Below are positions 3,628 through 46,863 of a DNA stretch of 64,000 nucleotides, piece by piece; the first letter of the stretch is position 1, and each line of letters starts with the position of its first letter. The notes below the pieces were generated by a model. That model searched no databases. It saw only the letters and a list, made by a program, of their open reading frames with translations, and was not told the origin of the DNA. This DNA comes from an uncultured Micavibrio sp. (GTDB taxonomy: Bacteria; Pseudomonadota; Alphaproteobacteria; Micavibrionales; UBA1664), in the NCBI GenBank assembly GCA_964531715.1, contig CAZHEE010000003.1:34989-98988 (forward strand), written 5' to 3'. The translations under genes were made by a program, and so were the position numbers.

Positions 3628-6484
3628 ATGTCTGATGATGAGAATAAGGATATTTATCTGGTCGATGGCTCGGCTTACATTTTCCGTGCCTATCATGCTT
3701 TACCGCCTTTAACCAATAAGAATGGTGTTGTTATTAACGCTGTGCTTGGCTTTACTAACATGATGGTTAAGTTATTGCGCGAGATGAAGGCCCCCTATAT
3801 CGCCGTGATATTTGACGCCACGCGCAAGAATTTCCGCAATGATATCTATGATCAGTATAAGGTCAACCGCGATGATCCACCCGAGGATCTCGTTCCCCAA
3901 TTCCAACTAATTAGAGATTGCGTGACAGCTTTTGGAATGGAGCCGATTGAGATGGATGGGTTTGAGGCGGATGACCTTATCGCCACATATGCCCGTATTG
4001 CGACCGAACAAGGACGTAAAGTCACGATTGTCTCATCCGATAAAGACCTGATGCAGCTTATCAACGACACTGTCACAATGTATGACCCGATGAAGGGAAA
4101 AATGCTGGGCATTGCGGACGTGCAAGAAAAATTCGGCGTTTCGCCTGATAAAGTCGTTGATGTGCAGGCGTTGGCAGGGGATGCGATTGATAATATTCCG
4201 GGTGTACCTGGTATTGGGATTAAGACCGCCGCGCAACTGATTGAGGAATATGGTGACCTTGAAAGCCTTCTTTCGCGTGCCGAAGAAATCAAGCAACCGA
4301 AACGCCGTGAAACACTTATCAATCATGCCGAGGATGCACGTATTTCAATGAAGCTTGTGTCATTGGATGCGCAAGTTGATGTGCCGTATGACCTGAATGA
4401 TTTGGCCGTGCATGATACAAATACGGAAACACTGATTGCTTTTTTGGAAGAGCATGGGCTCAATTCTGTTCTTAAACGGCTTGGGCATGATGCACCGAGC
4501 CAGACAAGCAAACAAGACGCGCCCCAAAATGATTTTCCACCAATTGTGGATAATAAATATACGCTTATTCAAGACGTGAAAACGCTTGAAAAATGGCTGG
4601 CGCGGGCAAGCGAAACAGGCATATTATCCTTTGATACCGAAACAACGGCTTTGACCCCTGCCAAGGCAGACTTAGTCGGGATTTCGATTGCGAGCGAAGT
4701 CGGTAAGGCTGCCTATATTCCGTTTGCCCATAAAAGCGGCGAAGTCGATTTGCTTGGCGATGGCGGTGAAGAGATTCGGCAAATTGAGATGAGGCATGCA
4801 CTCTTGCTCCTCAAGCCTATCCTTGAAAATCCGGCCATTATTAAGATTGCACAAAATGCAAAATATGATGTTCAAGTTTTGGAGGGGGCTTATTCTTCCT
4901 TGTCATCCCCGCCCCCGAGCGGGGACCCGAGGGGAGAGGCCCCCGCTCAAGGCGGGGGTGACAATAGTATAAATATCTATCCCATAGACGACACCGATCG
5001 AGGTCGCGCCCTGCGACGACACCATGCTCCTCTCCTACACGCTTGAGGCAGGCCTACACGGGCATGGCATGGATGAGCTGTCCGAGTTGTATTTTAATCA
5101 CAAACCAGTCCCCTTTAAAGAAGTTGCAGGAACAGGAAAATCGCAGGTAACTTTTGATTATGTGAGCCTTGATAAGGCACTCGATTACGCTGCGGAGGAT
5201 GCGGATATAACCTTGCGCTTATGGCATATTTTACGCGAAAAACTCAATCAAACGCGCGGTGTGATTAGCGTTTATGAGCAAATGGAGCGTCCGCTTGTGC
5301 CCGTCATGGTGCGGATGGAGGCAAAAGGTATTATGGTTGACCGCGCATCATTGCGTGACATGAGCAATCAATTTGCAACAAAGCTTGCAACGCTTGAGGC
5401 GGATGTTCATGCTGAAGCTGGCTCGCCCTTTAATATCGGTTCACCTAAGCAAGTGGGACAGGTGTTGTTTGATCAAATGGGCTTACAAGGGGGTAAGAAA
5501 ACCAAAACGGGGGATTGGTCAACCAATGTTTCGATTTTGGAAGATTTGGCGGTGAGTAATGCTATTGTCCGTAAAATCCTCGATTATCGTGGTTTGTCAA
5601 AGCTGAAATCCACTTACACAGATGCGTTACAGGATCAAATTATCCCTGACACAGGGCGAGTCCATACATCCTTTTCGATGGCTGGAACGTCAACAGGGCG
5701 GCTGGCCTCTAGCGACCCTAACCTGCAAAATATTCCGATTAGGACAGAAGAAGGGCGCAAAATTCGGACGGCCTTTATCGCGCCTGAGGGCAAAAGCCTT
5801 GTTTCAATTGATTATTCCCAAGTTGAATTACGCCTTGTTGCCGCGATGGCGGATATTCCAAGGCTCAAACAAGCCTTCATAGACGGGCATGACATTCACG
5901 CGATTACGGCAAGCGAGGTGTTTGGCGTGCCGCTCGACAAAATGGATGGCGAAACACGGCGCAAGGCCAAGGCGATTAATTTCGGTATTGTCTATGGGAT
6001 TAGCGGTTACGGCCTCGGGCGGCAACTCGGGATTGAGGCAGGCGAAGCGGGCGAGTATATCAAGCTTTACTTCAATCGCTTTCCCGAGCTTGCACAATAT
6101 ATGGACGAAACCAAGGCGATCGCGCATGAACAAGGCTATGTTGAAACCTTATTCGGGCGCAAATGCTGGATTAAAGGGATTAAGGATAAGAATTATTCCA
6201 TCCGTTCAGGTGCGGAAAGGGCGGCGATTAATGCGCCGATTCAAGGGACAGCCGCCGATATTATTAAGCAAGCAATGATTAAAATTGACCGCGCAATTTT
6301 GGATGGAGAGATTGAGGCGGCAATGTTGCTGCAGGTTCATGATGAACTGATTTTCGAAATTGATGATGATAAGATTGAGAGTGAGTCGGCAAAGATTAAA
6401 ACCATCATGGAAAATATAATTGACCTTGATGTTCCTCTCATTGCCGATGCCGGCTCCGGCAAAAACTGGGATGATGCGCATTAA
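3628..6484 (+). CDS. polA: DNA polymerase I; reading frame broken between 4996 and 5023 (ORF-track pieces 3628..5046 and 5024..6484)
   Basis: 5'-nuclease N-terminus (YLVDGSAYIFRAYHALPPL), 3'-5' exonuclease region (LSFDTETTAL, AQNAKYD) and polymerase motifs (DYSQVELRL, RRKAKAINFGIVYG, QVHDELIFE). Frame 1 ends at 5046 and frame 2 continues from 5024. Confidence 0.92.
4881..4966. repeat. GC-rich palindromic element inserted in frame within polA
   Basis: Hairpin arms 4901-4924 and 4940-4963 form a 13-bp outer and an 8-bp inner helix. The element encodes EGAYSSLSSPPPSGDPRGEAPAQGGGDNS between the conserved AQNAKYDVQVL and INIYPIDDT. It is far more GC-rich than the surrounding gene. Confidence 0.7.
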
Positions 6485-44009: not shown

Positions 44010-44627
44010 ATGATGGGTATTATTACGAAAATTCAGGATGTAACGCATAATATCCGTATCCTGACCATTCAAATGGATGGGGCGGAACCTTATCGTTTTA
44101 CGGCAGGGCAATATACGACACTCTCCGTTGATGGGTTTGAAGCGCGCCCCTTCTCGATTGCCAGCGCACCGCGAGATGACAACAGTTTCGATATTCATAT
44201 TCGTAATTCTGGTTACAATATTAGTGACAGGCTTTGCACTGATGCGAAAATATGTGATGCGGTTGAAGTCGGACAAGCGCAAGGGTCTTTGGCACTTCAT
44301 AAGAATAAAAACCATCATATTTTTATTGCTGGCGGCACAGGAATTACGCCCTTTCTCTCTATTTTAGAAGCTCATCCGAATATAAGAGGGCAACTTTATT
44401 GGGGCATGCAAAGCACACATGACTTTTACATTCAACCGACTTACGACAATTTAGAGATCTTTTATTGCACCGATATTTATCCGATTGACGCGTTTTTGGA
44501 TAAAAAAGATCAGATAATAAAAGATTATAGTGTCTATCTCAGTGGACCACCTGCGATGGTTCAAGATTCAAAAGCAAAGCTTTTGGCTTTTGGGTATGAA
44601 GAAGAAAATATTATTTATGATAGGTAA
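44010..44627 (+). CDS. ferredoxin-NADP reductase-like FAD/NAD(P)-binding oxidoreductase
   Basis: FAD motif RPFSIAS and NAD(P) motif IAGGTGITP; 205 aa. Confidence 0.75.
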   Translation: MMGIITKIQDVTHNIRILTIQMDGAEPYRFTAGQYTTLSVDGFEARPFSIASAPRDDNSFDIHIRNSGYNISDRLCTDAKICDAVEVGQAQGSLALHKNKNHHIFIAGGTGITPFLSILEAHPNIRGQLYWGMQSTHDFYIQPTYDNLEIFYCTDIYPIDAFLDKKDQIIKDYSVYLSGPPAMVQDSKAKLLAFGYEEENIIYDR

Positions 44628-44723
44628 GATATTTAAGGGACTTATATACTTAACTAGCCAAAAATAACTTGACTATCCATTAAATTTTGGCTAGTATATT
44701 ATTATATTAACAAGGATATAATA

Positions 44724-45650
44724 ATGGATAAGCCCGAAACACTAAGTCTTTACGAATTTTTTCAACAATTTCCGAATGAGGAATCAGCAAGACAATACTT
44801 TGAAACAAAGCGTTGGGGTGACACACCGCATTGTGCTCATTGCGGTTCTGTTGAAGTATCAGAATGTAAAGATCTCAAGCCAATGCCATATCGTTGTAAA
44901 GCTTGCCGTAAACATTTTAGCGTTCGTACTGGCACAGTATTGGCGGAATCACGCTTGCCATTACACAAATGGTTAATGGCTATCTATATGCTTACAACGG
45001 CTCGTAAGGGCTTACCATCCACACAAATGGCAAAAGAATTGGGCGTTACTCAAAAAACAGCATGGTTTTTAGCGCAAAGAATCCGTGAAACTTGGACGAA
45101 TAATAAGGACAATAACAAAGGCAATCACATTCAAGTTGATGAAACATATGTAGGCGGAAAAGAAAGCAACAAACACGCATCTAAAAAATTGCGTCAAGGA
45201 CGTGGTTCTATTGGCAAGACAGCCGTTATCGGTTCAATTAATGAAAACTGCAAAGTAAATGCAAAGGTGACACAGGATGTTAAACGTCAATCATTACATG
45301 GCTTTGTATCTGATAGCGCGAATAAGGGCGCAACGGTTGTAACTGATAACTTTCCTGCATATCGTGGTTTAAATAACCGTGGTTACGCTCACAAAGTTGT
45401 AAATCACTCCGTAGGCGAATACATTCGCAATAATGCACATACAAACGGCATTGAGAGCTTTTGGGCTTTATTGAAACGTGGTTACTATGGTGTTTATCAT
45501 TACATGAGTGCAAAGCACCTAAACAGATACGTTAATGAATTTTCGTTCCGCCACAATACAGCACAAATTGGCACTATGGACTTCATCGGAATGACAATCG
45601 AGAGAATGAACAACAAACGACTAACATACAAGGAATTGATAAATGGCTAA
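44724..45650 (+). CDS. IS1595-family (ISXO2-like) DDE transposase with an N-terminal zinc ribbon
   Basis: CAHCGS...YRCKACRKHFSVRTGT zinc ribbon, HTH (STQMAKELGVTQKTAWFL), QVDETYVGGKE, TDNFPAYRGL, and HTNGIESFWALLKRGYYGVYHYMSAKHLNRYVNEFSFRHN. Confidence 0.9.
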   Translation: MDKPETLSLYEFFQQFPNEESARQYFETKRWGDTPHCAHCGSVEVSECKDLKPMPYRCKACRKHFSVRTGTVLAESRLPLHKWLMAIYMLTTARKGLPSTQMAKELGVTQKTAWFLAQRIRETWTNNKDNNKGNHIQVDETYVGGKESNKHASKKLRQGRGSIGKTAVIGSINENCKVNAKVTQDVKRQSLHGFVSDSANKGATVVTDNFPAYRGLNNRGYAHKVVNHSVGEYIRNNAHTNGIESFWALLKRGYYGVYHYMSAKHLNRYVNEFSFRHNTAQIGTMDFIGMTIERMNNKRLTYKELING

Positions 45651-46689
45651 AAAAGATGGAATTGAACCTATTGACGACGATTTTGATAACGTTGTTGAAG
45701 CGGTAGTAACACCAGAGAAAGGCTTAAAGGAAATCACCTCTAAAGCTAGCAAAATAAAGGCTTTAGCACCAAAATCAGGCAGTAAGGAAATCAGCTCACA
45801 AGCTAGCCTAAATTTAGGCATCGATGTTGAGCGAGAAGTTAATGGAATAGGCATGGGTGTTCTAGGTGATGGGACGCCTTACCTAAACCAACGTGGTCTA
45901 GCGGCTTTATGTGGTGTTCAAAACGCTCACATAGGAACTATTAGTTCACAATGGAATGAAGAGCCGTTAAAACCTCGAATCGCCTCAATTAAAAAGGTGT
46001 TAGAAAAAGCAGGATATTTTACTAGTTCAGCGCATATTGAAATTGAGCATAAAGGAATTACGCATTTTTGTTACCCAGCAGAAGTTTGTTTAGCAATTCT
46101 TGAATATTACTCCTTTGATGCGGGGGCAAATTGCCAACCTCAGGCAAGAGATAACTATAGAATTTTGGCTGGCACACAGTTACGCGAAATGATTTATAGC
46201 CAAGTTGGCTATGACCCAACTGGCCGCTATAAAGACCGCTTTGAAAAATGGCACGAAAGAATTGAGTTAAATCATCAATCTGCTCCAAAGGGCTTTTTCT
46301 CCGTATTCAACGAAGCGCACACAATAATCTATGAAATGATCCAAGCAGGTGCCGACATTGGCGAAAAAACAATCGTTGATATATCTATAGGAAAACATTG
46401 GGGACCGTATTGGGATAAAAATGGTTTAGCCACTCAATATGGGGCAAGAATTAAATACCCGCATAGATACCCAGACTCGCATCCGCAGGCAAAAAGCAAT
46501 CCGCAAGAGGCTTGGTGCTATCCTTTGGCAGCTCTAGGGCATTATAGGGAGTGGTTGCAAAACACTTACATTGAGCAAGGAAAATTTGCGAAATATATTG
46601 ATGGCAAGGTTAAGAAAAAAGAATTACCGCCATCTGTGGCGCAATTAGCTGTTGCGGCAGTAGAGCAAAATTTAATCGAGGGGTCTTAA
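45643..46689 (+). CDS. IS passenger protein; tentative P63C/Bro-like phage-type DNA-binding protein
   Basis: Overlaps the transposase stop by 8 nt. GVLGDGTPYLNQRGLAALCGV resembles the GVLSDGTRVLTQRG pattern I recall from P63C-domain proteins. This assignment is from memory only. Confidence 0.6.
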   Translation: MAKKDGIEPIDDDFDNVVEAVVTPEKGLKEITSKASKIKALAPKSGSKEISSQASLNLGIDVEREVNGIGMGVLGDGTPYLNQRGLAALCGVQNAHIGTISSQWNEEPLKPRIASIKKVLEKAGYFTSSAHIEIEHKGITHFCYPAEVCLAILEYYSFDAGANCQPQARDNYRILAGTQLREMIYSQVGYDPTGRYKDRFEKWHERIELNHQSAPKGFFSVFNEAHTIIYEMIQAGADIGEKTIVDISIGKHWGPYWDKNGLATQYGARIKYPHRYPDSHPQAKSNPQEAWCYPLAALGHYREWLQNTYIEQGKFAKYIDGKVKKKELPPSVAQLAVAAVEQNLIEGS

Positions 46690-46701
46690 CCCCTCTTTTT
46701 T
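46678..46701 (+). terminator. rho-independent terminator inside the IS right end
   Basis: GAGGGGT-CTTA-ACCCCTC followed by TTTTTT. It overlaps the passenger stop codon. Confidence 0.75.
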
Positions 46702-46741
46702 AACTTAAATGGCTAATTAAGTATATAGATCCCATATTTAA

Positions 46742-46812
46742 CTATGAGTAGGATGAGGAATATGATTTTTAATGACTAAAAATACTCCTCATACACTTTA
46801 TTACTCATAGTT
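46742..46812. repeat. long imperfect hairpin adjoining the IS insertion site
   Basis: CTATGAGTA..ATGAGGAATAT ... ATACTCCTCAT..TACTCATAG. Confidence 0.45.
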
Positions 46813-46863
46813 TAAAAAATCACTAAGACTTTCTATTTCACTTAAAACACTTATCTTTACATC

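Follow-up and report, generated by a model that had tools for sequence, protein, structure and literature searches.

We describe an insertion sequence (IS) of the IS1595 family that lies in a 64-kb stretch of DNA (64,000 nucleotides of a contig of an uncultured Micavibrio sp., hereafter the window). The element is 2,097 bp long (44637-46733), and its transposase gene is followed by a coupled second gene, ORF2, whose product is assigned by profile matches to the BstA family of abortive-infection (Abi) proteins. Our preferred explanation, to which we give a probability of roughly two in three, is that the element is an intact, single-copy member of an IS1595-family "transporter" IS lineage with a modular second gene, and that it moves a defence gene together with the site that provides immunity to it. 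This explanation is built on the identity of ORF2, on the exchange of its body among related elements, and on a pair of repeat boxes at the 5' end of the bstA part.

Identity of ORF2 and its coupling to the transposase

BstA is a prophage-encoded protein that localises to replicating phage DNA, blocks its replication and aborts infection (Owen et al. 2021, Cell Host Microbe; PMC8585504), an activity tested for proteins of Salmonella, Klebsiella and E. coli prophages (PMC8585504). The original prediction, made from the DNA letters, had tentatively related the product of ORF2 to P63C/Bro-type DNA-binding proteins. The profile matches instead identify it as a BstA-family abortive-infection protein: PADLOC BstA (PDLC02356) matches at 5e-120, residues 51-342 being aligned to profile positions 4-289 of 292, and PHROG 6287 ("BstA abortive infection system") matches at 2.5e-89. 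The comparison of ORF2 with NCBIfam and with a Pfam set that does not include PF26567 gave no match. There are 989 homologues at E <= 0.001, and according to precomputed annotation PF26567 (BstA_C) is carried by the 120 listed as well as by ORF2 itself. The P63C/Bro guess was a near miss, because the N-domain of BstA is reported to be KilA-N-like (PMC8585504) and because P63C, Bro-N and KilA-N proteins are sibling cargos in related elements.

A structure search had been proposed as a check of the passenger. The AlphaFold model of ORF2 shows a confident N-domain (from about residue 60 to 180-190, pLDDT mostly >85) and, apart from it, a C-domain; a Foldseek search of the PDB returned nothing significant. 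One related element (L083, ORF2 at 4920-5810) carries a natural chimera composed of the leader, a Pfam KilA-N domain (1e-25) and a BstA C-domain (PADLOC BstA, 3e-16), which supports the view that the BstA N-domain and KilA-N may be interchangeable modules.

ORF2 overlaps the stop codon of the transposase gene by 8 nt (ATGGCTAA). Its ATG lies within the last transposase codons, and an AAGGA Shine-Dalgarno motif, located 8 nt upstream, is embedded in the conserved Y-K-E codons of the transposase (TAC AAG GAA ...). The same 8-nt overlap is retained in 59 of the 64 junctions measured in relatives. The claim of a second gene of 348 codons, co-mobilised with the transposase and translationally coupled to it, stands. 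A transposase-ORF2 fusion produced by programmed frameshifting was considered, as ORF2 is in the +1 frame and AAAAAAG occurs at the junction; it was judged unlikely because the overlaps of relatives measure 4, 8, 11 or 14 nt with differing junction sequences, and because the junction RNA is unstructured.

The transposase matches the Pfam families PF12762 (DDE_Tnp_IS1595, 3e-39) and PF12760 (Zn_ribbon_IS1595, 3e-10) and the NCBIfam model NF033547 (transpos_IS1595, 189.6 bits with a cut-off of 75), and its residues C37, C40, C58, C61, D208, E244 and K251 are invariant in 64 relatives. The features of the IS1595 family that were examined are present, namely a transposase with zinc ribbon and DDE domain, terminal inverted repeats (IRs) and an 8-bp duplication of the target. 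The IR starts with GGGACTTAT and K251 is found at E+7; both are consistent with the IR consensus (ggnnatTAT) and the DDEK motif of the ISNwi1 subgroup, to which the element may belong.

ORF2 as a swappable cargo slot

A metagenome scan with the window transposase returned 80 loci at 55-76% identity, and both ends could be identified for 66 elements, which span 2.0-3.3 kb. No bare IS (~1.1 kb) is present among these 66, and in 63 of them an ORF2 of 296-404 residues lies directly downstream of the transposase gene on the same strand; a coupled ORF2 is also found at every further locus with incomplete ends where downstream sequence is available. A second gene had been considered unusual for an IS, but it is the rule in this lineage, since every relative with enough sequence has one coupled to the transposase.

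The bodies of these second genes are of several kinds. There are 29 BstA bodies (including the chimera of L083), and another 27 include P63C-domain proteins; the rest are four RhuM proteins, two Dcm C5-methylases, and one each of a ParA-like ATPase, a Bro-N and a KilA-N protein. The RhuM, Bro-N and KilA-N bodies match the PADLOC candidates PDC-S05, PDC-S13 and PDC-S22, respectively.

Cargo types are thoroughly interspersed on the transposase tree. Sister pairs that carry different cargos are 82-87% identical in DNA from the left IR (IRL) through the transposase gene and for 12-82 nt into ORF2, where homology ends, returning only at the ~24-34 bp of the right IR (IRR). The nearest relative of the window element (L250, 1-3773, in the metagenome-assembled genome (MAG) GCA_964350795.1) has a transposase of the same 90%-identity cluster and carries P63C, not BstA, as cargo; its homology to the window ends at 45711, after the first 23 codons of ORF2, and is seen again only over the last 34 bp. 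Together these findings show the ORF2 slot to be a built-in, modular one.

Two findings had been named in advance as speaking against a co-mobilised passenger: homologues found only outside IS contexts, and other copies of the IS lacking the gene. Homologues were found both inside and outside IS elements, and the nearest relative lacks BstA while holding P63C in the same slot; therefore the idea is not refuted but refined to that of a swappable cargo module. The term passenger gene is correct in that ORF2 is cargo, and incorrect in that it is not a simple passenger, its first 23 codons being IS backbone common to unrelated cargos.

The L250 element adjoins SIR2_2, DUF2971 and HipA/HipB genes, a neighbourhood resembling a defence island.

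Repeat boxes resembling the immunity element aba

In the prophage system, the DNA element aba neutralises BstA for its own prophage (PMC8585504). The aba of BTP1 is 63 bp long and reaches from 29 bp upstream of bstA to 34 bp into the gene (PMC8585504); its terminal CCCGCC direct repeats are essential and lie 56 bp apart, and aba is specific to the cognate BstA (PMC8585504).

At the 5' end of the BstA module, the window element carries two AAGGAAATCA boxes 57 bp apart. They lie in 44-nt repeat units (45707-45750 and 45764-45807, 75% identical, 57 nt apart), and the box region corresponds to residues ~28-51 of ORF2. When the region upstream of the N-domain was searched blindly for its best direct repeat (loci L010-L078 and L082-L152), the spacing was exactly 57 bp in 68 of the 79 distinct BstA genes, and the repeat always lay ~120 nt before the N-domain. 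The pattern occurs in 0 of 34 non-BstA cargo ORF2s, which rules it out as a general trait of all cargos. Box sequences are clade-specific; besides AAGGAAATCA they include AAGGAACTCG, CCGGCACCCCC, TCCGGCCACC, TTCGATCACC, TCGCCACCCCT, GGGTGCCAC and AGCCCGCC.

The boxes are conserved at synonymous sites across BstA genes of Alphaproteobacteria with a GC content of 40-62% in their 5' regions. In every one of the 68 repeat boxes listed, Glu is encoded by GAA, whereas GAG is favoured by most control Glu codons of the same genes, and the entropy of third codon positions is mostly 0.3-0.8 in the boxes as against mostly 1.4-2.0 at invariant N-domain residues. The original prediction had described a Lys/Ser-rich N-terminus with an internal repeat; the repeat (KEITS/KEISS) is real and corresponds to the two AAGGAAATCA boxes, so that in the protein it is the shadow of aba-like direct repeats conserved as DNA. 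The AAGGA contained in the boxes was also considered as an internal ribosome-binding site, a reading rejected because no start codon follows either box.

The boxes share with the BTP1 aba the extreme 5' position in the gene and the arrangement of two direct-repeat boxes 56-57 bp apart, and the cognate specificity of that aba is paralleled by box sequences that differ between clades. They differ from it in that the box is AAGGAAATCA and in that both boxes are located wholly inside the coding region. Judged by sequence architecture, then, the window gene has a candidate cognate aba, and the boxes would be an aba-like self-immunity element, the IS-borne bstA having apparently kept its immunity site.

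BstA genes inside and outside IS1595-family elements

A scan with a BstA alignment, one genome being taken per species, yielded 69 loci, almost all of them in Alphaproteobacteria. An IS1595 transposase gene lies directly upstream on the same strand at 16 loci, to which L040 is added, where the transposase gene is internally deleted; at eight loci a short bstA is followed by a DUF3800 gene and then by a convergent IS1595 transposase gene, and one locus has a transposase gene nearby in another orientation. No IS1595 transposase was found within 6 kb at 32 loci, and 12 have too little flank to be judged. Thus ~45% of the judgeable alphaproteobacterial BstA loci (25-26 of 57) are inside IS1595-family elements of three architectures.

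The upstream transposases belong to two lineages, 65-77% and ~40% identical to that of the window. IRs and perfect 8-bp AT-rich duplications enclose transposase and bstA together at unrelated sites (L010, L014, L020, L024, L035, L057, L071 and L062, the last belonging to the second lineage). The transposase-bstA unit is thus mobile and recurs. IS1595-like IRs and duplications delimit the convergent type as well; BstA has therefore entered IS1595-family elements by at least three routes. A third lineage, whose transposase is 31-35% identical to that of the window and whose IR is GGCGATTATATAYTTGACAAACCCA, encloses a leaderless bstA, a gene of ~1 kb and a convergent transposase gene (L004-L009, L015, L034, L043, L044, L049, L053, L056, L252 and L253), with duplications that include AGACCAAA, TTTTTTTT and CCCTATTT. 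In L004-L009, L252 and L253 the ~1 kb gene is DUF3800, which corresponds to the PADLOC candidate PDC-M04A.

One 1.6-kb derivative (L040, 5515-7105) has recognisable IRs and a T-rich duplication and has lost most of its transposase gene, with bstA and leader intact. We regard it as a non-autonomous, MITE-like element still carrying the defence gene; at L059 a degraded transposase gene also accompanies an intact bstA. BstA would thus work without the transposase, as suggested by the transposase-free occurrence of the same clade in 32 genomes and by the retention of bstA in L040.

The leader peptide and a possible role in transposition

The first ~24 residues of ORF2 follow the consensus M-P-K/D-K-x-x-I-E-P-I-D-A-x-F-D-x-V-A-x-A-M-V, which is common to the ORF2s of seven unrelated cargo families in >85 related elements and beyond which the proteins diverge completely. 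At its conserved residues the entropy of codon positions 1 and 2 is ~0-0.6 bits and that of position 3 is 1.1-2.0 bits (58 distinct sequences); since the first two positions are near-invariant and the third is near saturation, selection acts on the peptide and not on DNA or RNA. Saturated third positions also rule out the leader as a DNA element, such as a recombination arm or a transposase-binding site, or as an RNA signal.

BstA genes outside these ISs have no leader and begin at about residue 28 of the window protein. The second transposase lineage (~40% identical) has a related leader, PPFxLDMxFxEALxRFA, on BstA, RhuM, Dam-methylase or unknown bodies. Among remoter IS1595 relatives (~40-48% identity, abundant in IMG/VR viral contigs) some have a leader of the type MDFDELLTAAV on N4/N6 methylases, others have P63C, Bro-N or KilA-N genes that lack a leader and overlap the transposase stop, and about half are bare. 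Going by these distributions, the leader is an old, element-intrinsic feature that tracks the transposase and not the cargo. In two viral-contig elements of the second lineage (L169, 6903-7118, 71 residues; L170, 6909-7067, 52 residues) the leader forms an ORF of its own with a Lys/Arg-rich tail, and the cargos are separate genes after it, which suggests that the leader was at first a small protein of the IS and that the fusion to cargos came later. In the AlphaFold model of the window's ORF2 the leader forms a short helix of low confidence (residues 14-22), followed by disorder to residue 57.

As the main rival reading, these features could be those of a transposition accessory factor, whose leader would dock on the transposase while a DNA-binding body that varies among elements, or just a basic tail, would provide DNA targeting or regulation. 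One possible variant of this idea is that insertion is steered to replicating phage or plasmid DNA, similarly to what is done by the target selectors of Tn7. Such a factor would account for the absence of bare elements among the >85 with sequence, for the strictly kept 8-nt overlap at the transposase stop (59 of 64 elements), for a leader that is under purifying selection as a peptide and differs by transposase lineage but not by cargo, and for the leader-only small ORFs with basic tails; moreover all cargos act on DNA, and BstA localises to replicating phage DNA (PMC8585504). On the other hand, seven non-homologous bodies cannot share one specific biochemical role, the insertion sites look like plain AT-rich 8-mers for every cargo type, and the same BstA clade is common without a transposase and is kept where the transposase is deleted. 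Remoter IS1595 relatives are often bare, therefore transposase chemistry needs no such factor, and a defence function has been demonstrated for BstA (PMC8585504). We consider an accessory role unlikely.

A bolder proposal, which we regard as quite doubtful, is that the leader is a docking peptide tying a fused DNA-recognition protein to the transposase, so that the sensing of phage or other foreign DNA would be coupled to transposition. If this were true, insertion could be steered into replicating phage or plasmid DNA, so that the IS would hitch-hike on a replicon that becomes BstA-armed and aba-immune; alternatively, the transposase could be released or activated upon infection. BstA, P63C, KilA-N, Bro-N and RhuM would then be interchangeable sensor heads of one transposon-borne system.

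It is very improbable that ORF2 is an ordinary hitch-hiking passenger, the leader being only a context for re-initiation after the transposase stop with no function as protein. The first codons are rich in Lys and in A and the junction is unstructured, both of which favour initiation, but the conservation of ~24 residues on codon positions 1 and 2 with a saturated third position is a signature of selection on the peptide, and the motif persists across transposase lineages that are only ~40% identical and occurs as a stand-alone small ORF.

A proposed vehicle for a defence gene and its immunity site

Our preferred explanation, a transporter IS that moves bstA with its immunity site, can be set out as follows. 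A single transcript would start at the element's own promoter, and ORF2 would be translated by coupling to the transposase, which may keep a potentially lethal Abi protein at a low, transposase-like level. The leader most likely docks ORF2 on its cognate transposase, possibly co-translationally; this step, which we infer, is the weakest of the explanation. BstA would sense and block replicating phage DNA and abort the infection, as shown for prophage BstA, and the aba-like boxes would protect any replicon on which the element is present at high copy. If a prophage or plasmid acquired the IS, it could gain both weapon and immunity. Related elements would swap cargo through recombination, on the leader/transposase side and on the IRR side. 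If BstA defends and aba spares in this manner, the IS would therefore be a vehicle spreading a defence gene with its immunity site among chromosomes, islands and prophages. Among the roles offered in the original prediction, that of a hitch-hiking phage-interference gene is the best supported. Defence-type genes that accompany the elements also speak for this explanation, namely the Panacea antitoxin pair, the Cas2-like gene, DUF3800, the cargos that match PADLOC candidates, and SIR2 and HipBA beside the nearest relative.

Several points weigh against this explanation. The membership of ORF2 in the BstA family is drawn from profile matches, the defence activity of the window's BstA clade is argued from the tested prophage proteins, and a KilA-N fold of the N-domain found neither a Pfam KilA-N match nor a significant Foldseek match in the PDB. 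AlphaFold confidence is low for residues 1-57. The universal presence of ORF2, with cargos that all bind or act on DNA, would also fit a role in transposition, and current mobility is unproven because no second copy or empty site was found. Finally, one copy of aba in the chromosome does not suppress BstA (PMC8585504), and for this reason the selective advantage of an aba on a chromosomal IS is only inferred.

Relation to known systems

The window gene shares with the prophage BstA system a full-length profile match and, in the AlphaFold model, a two-domain build, the N-domain being probably of DNA-binding type. It differs in location, as it lies outside a prophage and not downstream of a cI-type repressor but in an IS between an oxidoreductase gene and recR, and also in being translationally coupled to a transposase gene and extended by an IS-encoded N-terminal leader. 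Prophage-independent occurrence has been noted before: 21% of BstA homologues were classed as "prophage-independent", with transposases unmentioned (PMC8585504).

Among IS elements the nearest known counterparts are the passenger carriers of the IS1595 family. These are reportedly called "tIS" by Siguier, Gagnevin and Chandler (2009) and in ISfinder, and are said to include the ISNwi1+ and ISNha5 subgroups. They have in common with the window element the zinc ribbon and DDE domain, the 8-bp duplication, an IR beginning GGnnnTTAT and passengers located downstream of the transposase gene inside the IRs, methyltransferases and regulator-like proteins being among those known. In the window lineage, by contrast, the passenger is obligatory and fused in frame to a conserved 23-residue leader, the cargo is swapped as a cassette between leader and IRR, and the window cargo is apparently an anti-phage Abi gene with its immunity site.

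Tn7-like elements can carry defence systems as cargo, and polymorphic-toxin-style loci combine a constant N-terminus with swappable C-terminal modules. The former share with the window element the use of a transposable element as a vehicle for immune genes, but the window-type vehicle is minimal (2-3 kb). The latter share a constant N-terminal part and interchangeable effector modules replaced by recombination; here, however, the constant part is only ~23 residues long and has no known trafficking role, and the proteins bind DNA in the cytoplasm instead of being secreted as toxins.

Passenger-carrying ISs were already known, and so was BstA. In the literature that could be searched, no paper was found that links BstA, P63C or defence genes with IS1595, none on an obligatory ORF2 slot in which a leader encoded by the element is fused to interchangeable cargos, and none on BstA with aba as cargo of a minimal IS or on a two-box, 57-bp signature across the BstA family. 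The element would provide a concrete vehicle for the spread of BstA outside prophages. A cargo slot that is a built-in, obligatory feature of an IS and bears an element-encoded tag blurs the distinction between passenger gene and transposon component, and the leader fusion points to a transposase-cargo interaction that can be tested. Moreover, aba, tested so far at three prophage loci, may now be recognisable as a sequence signature in which two clade-specific boxes are set 57 bp apart at the 5' end of bstA. Such a signature could help to identify cognate BstA/aba pairs and to search for the DNA-binding site of BstA. The P63C, RhuM, KilA-N and Bro-N proteins found in the same slot become candidate single-gene defence proteins.

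Anatomy, insertion site and integrity of the element

The coordinates of the features are collected in Table 1. The anatomy given in the original prediction was confirmed throughout, including the 24-bp IRs with the perfect 8-bp duplication, the intact zinc-ribbon/DDE transposase, the element's own terminator, and the insertion one nucleotide past the stop codon (TAA, 44625-44627) of the upstream gene. This gene, proposed to be FNR-like, encodes a FAD/NAD-binding oxidoreductase of 205 residues; recR lies downstream of the element.

Table 1. Features of the IS1595-family element and its borders (window coordinates)
Feature	Position	Strand	Basis or remark
Left target-site duplication ATATTTAA	44629..44636	.	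identical to 46734-46741
IRL GGGACTTATATACTTAACTAGCCA	44637..44660	+	21/24 identity to IRR; unique in window
Promoter-like site: -35 TTGACT, 17-nt spacer, -10 TAGTAT	44669..44697	+	consensus scan
IS1595-family transposase, 308 aa, N-terminal zinc ribbon + HTH + DDE domain	44724..45650	+	Pfam, NCBIfam
ORF2, 348 aa: IS leader, aba-encoding linker and BstA abortive-infection protein	45643..46689	+	PADLOC, PHROG
Backbone-encoded leader peptide, residues 1-23: MAKKDGIEPIDDDFDNVVEAVVT	45643..45711	+	consensus across cargo families
Exchangeable cargo module: aba-like element, BstA body and terminator	45712..46709	+	homology breaks in sister elements
aba-like element: AAGGAAATCA twice, at 45727-45736 and at 45784-45793 (57 bp apart)	45727..45793	+	5' end of BstA module
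Intrinsic terminator-like hairpin GAGGGGTCTTAACCCCTC and T-run, GC-rich, overlapping the ORF2 stop	46678..46701	+	sequence scan
IRR, reverse complement GGGATCTATATACTTAATTAGCCA	46710..46733	-	21/24 agreement with IRL
Right target-site duplication ATATTTAA	46734..46741	.	copy of 44629-44636

IRL and IRR are the only two IR matches in the window, where none is expected by chance, and the IR consensus GGGNNYTATATACYTAACTAGCCA likewise bounds related elements, 45 of 66 of which are surrounded by perfect 8-bp AT-rich duplications. A check of copy number had been proposed: one copy is present in the 64-kb window, and neither a second copy nor an empty site was found; the same insertion is seen in four sister metagenome assemblies, contigs of three sister metagenomes being this very locus.

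It is highly improbable that the element is a fixed, immobile relic whose apparent intactness comes from selection on BstA alone: the single copy in the window, the shared insertion of the sister assemblies with no empty site seen, and the degraded transposases accompanying intact bstA in L040 and L059 would agree with it, but the transposase ORF is full length with all invariant residues, the IRs agree at 21 of 24 positions with a perfect duplication, the promoter-like site and terminator are intact, and close relatives show many independent insertions with perfect duplications.

The region between IRL and the transposase start contains GGCTAG (44689-44694), which overlaps the -10 box and is inverted with respect to CTAGCC within IRL. 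A layout TTGAC...GGCTAGT is kept in the corresponding regions of the lineage, among those listed, and TGGCTA[GAT] or TGGTTAG occurs <=76 nt from IRL in 54 of 89 IRL-to-start regions. In this region (window 44652-44697 and its counterparts in relatives), the CTAGCC at the inner end of IRL recurs after the -35 box in many relatives and also, inverted as GGCTAG, over the -10 box. CTAGCC/GGCTAG may be a transposase-binding site placed over the element's own promoter, which would allow autoregulation.

At the other end, L250 has an analogous hairpin 3' of its ORF2. Directly after the right duplication, a long imperfect hairpin (window 46737-46815, ~-22 kcal/mol, z = -3.9 vs shuffles) is followed by TTTAAAAAA; before the insertion this hairpin probably served the oxidoreductase gene as its intergenic terminator, the IS having landed between stop codon and hairpin. 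The window also contains one tRNA and no rRNA.

Additional cargo and viral contexts

In the annotated plasmid and phage collections only generic names ("IS1595 family transposase") were found, and no close relative with an annotated ORF2. In IMG/VR, IS1595 transposases related to the second lineage match 240 viral contigs (L161-L246 among the viral-contig loci) and the window lineage matches six, the flanks being taken as labelled; many of these viral-contig elements carry coupled P63C, Bro-N, KilA-N or methylase genes. IS1595-family ISs may be a common entry route for accessory ("moron") genes into phage genomes.

In a Maricaulaceae MAG, an element with perfect 24-bp IRs and no target duplication (L011, identical to L002; 4993-7093) lies directly after phage terminase and portal genes, which may belong to a prophage or to a cluster for a gene-transfer agent. 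This points to rearrangement between copies of the IS or to insertion into DNA of phage origin.

Several bstA elements are 2.5-3.05 kb long and contain extra genes 3' of bstA, inside the IRs (L035, 2402-3284; L071, 7056-7956; L014, 7309-7578; L010, 7136-7435; L020, 7213-7980; L021, 5967-6740; L057, 7272-8003). The extra cargo comprises a Panacea-domain antitoxin with a small partner ORF, which are likely a toxin-antitoxin pair. Also present are a Cas2-like protein on its own, an HTH_37 protein, and proteins of ~250 residues that lack annotation.

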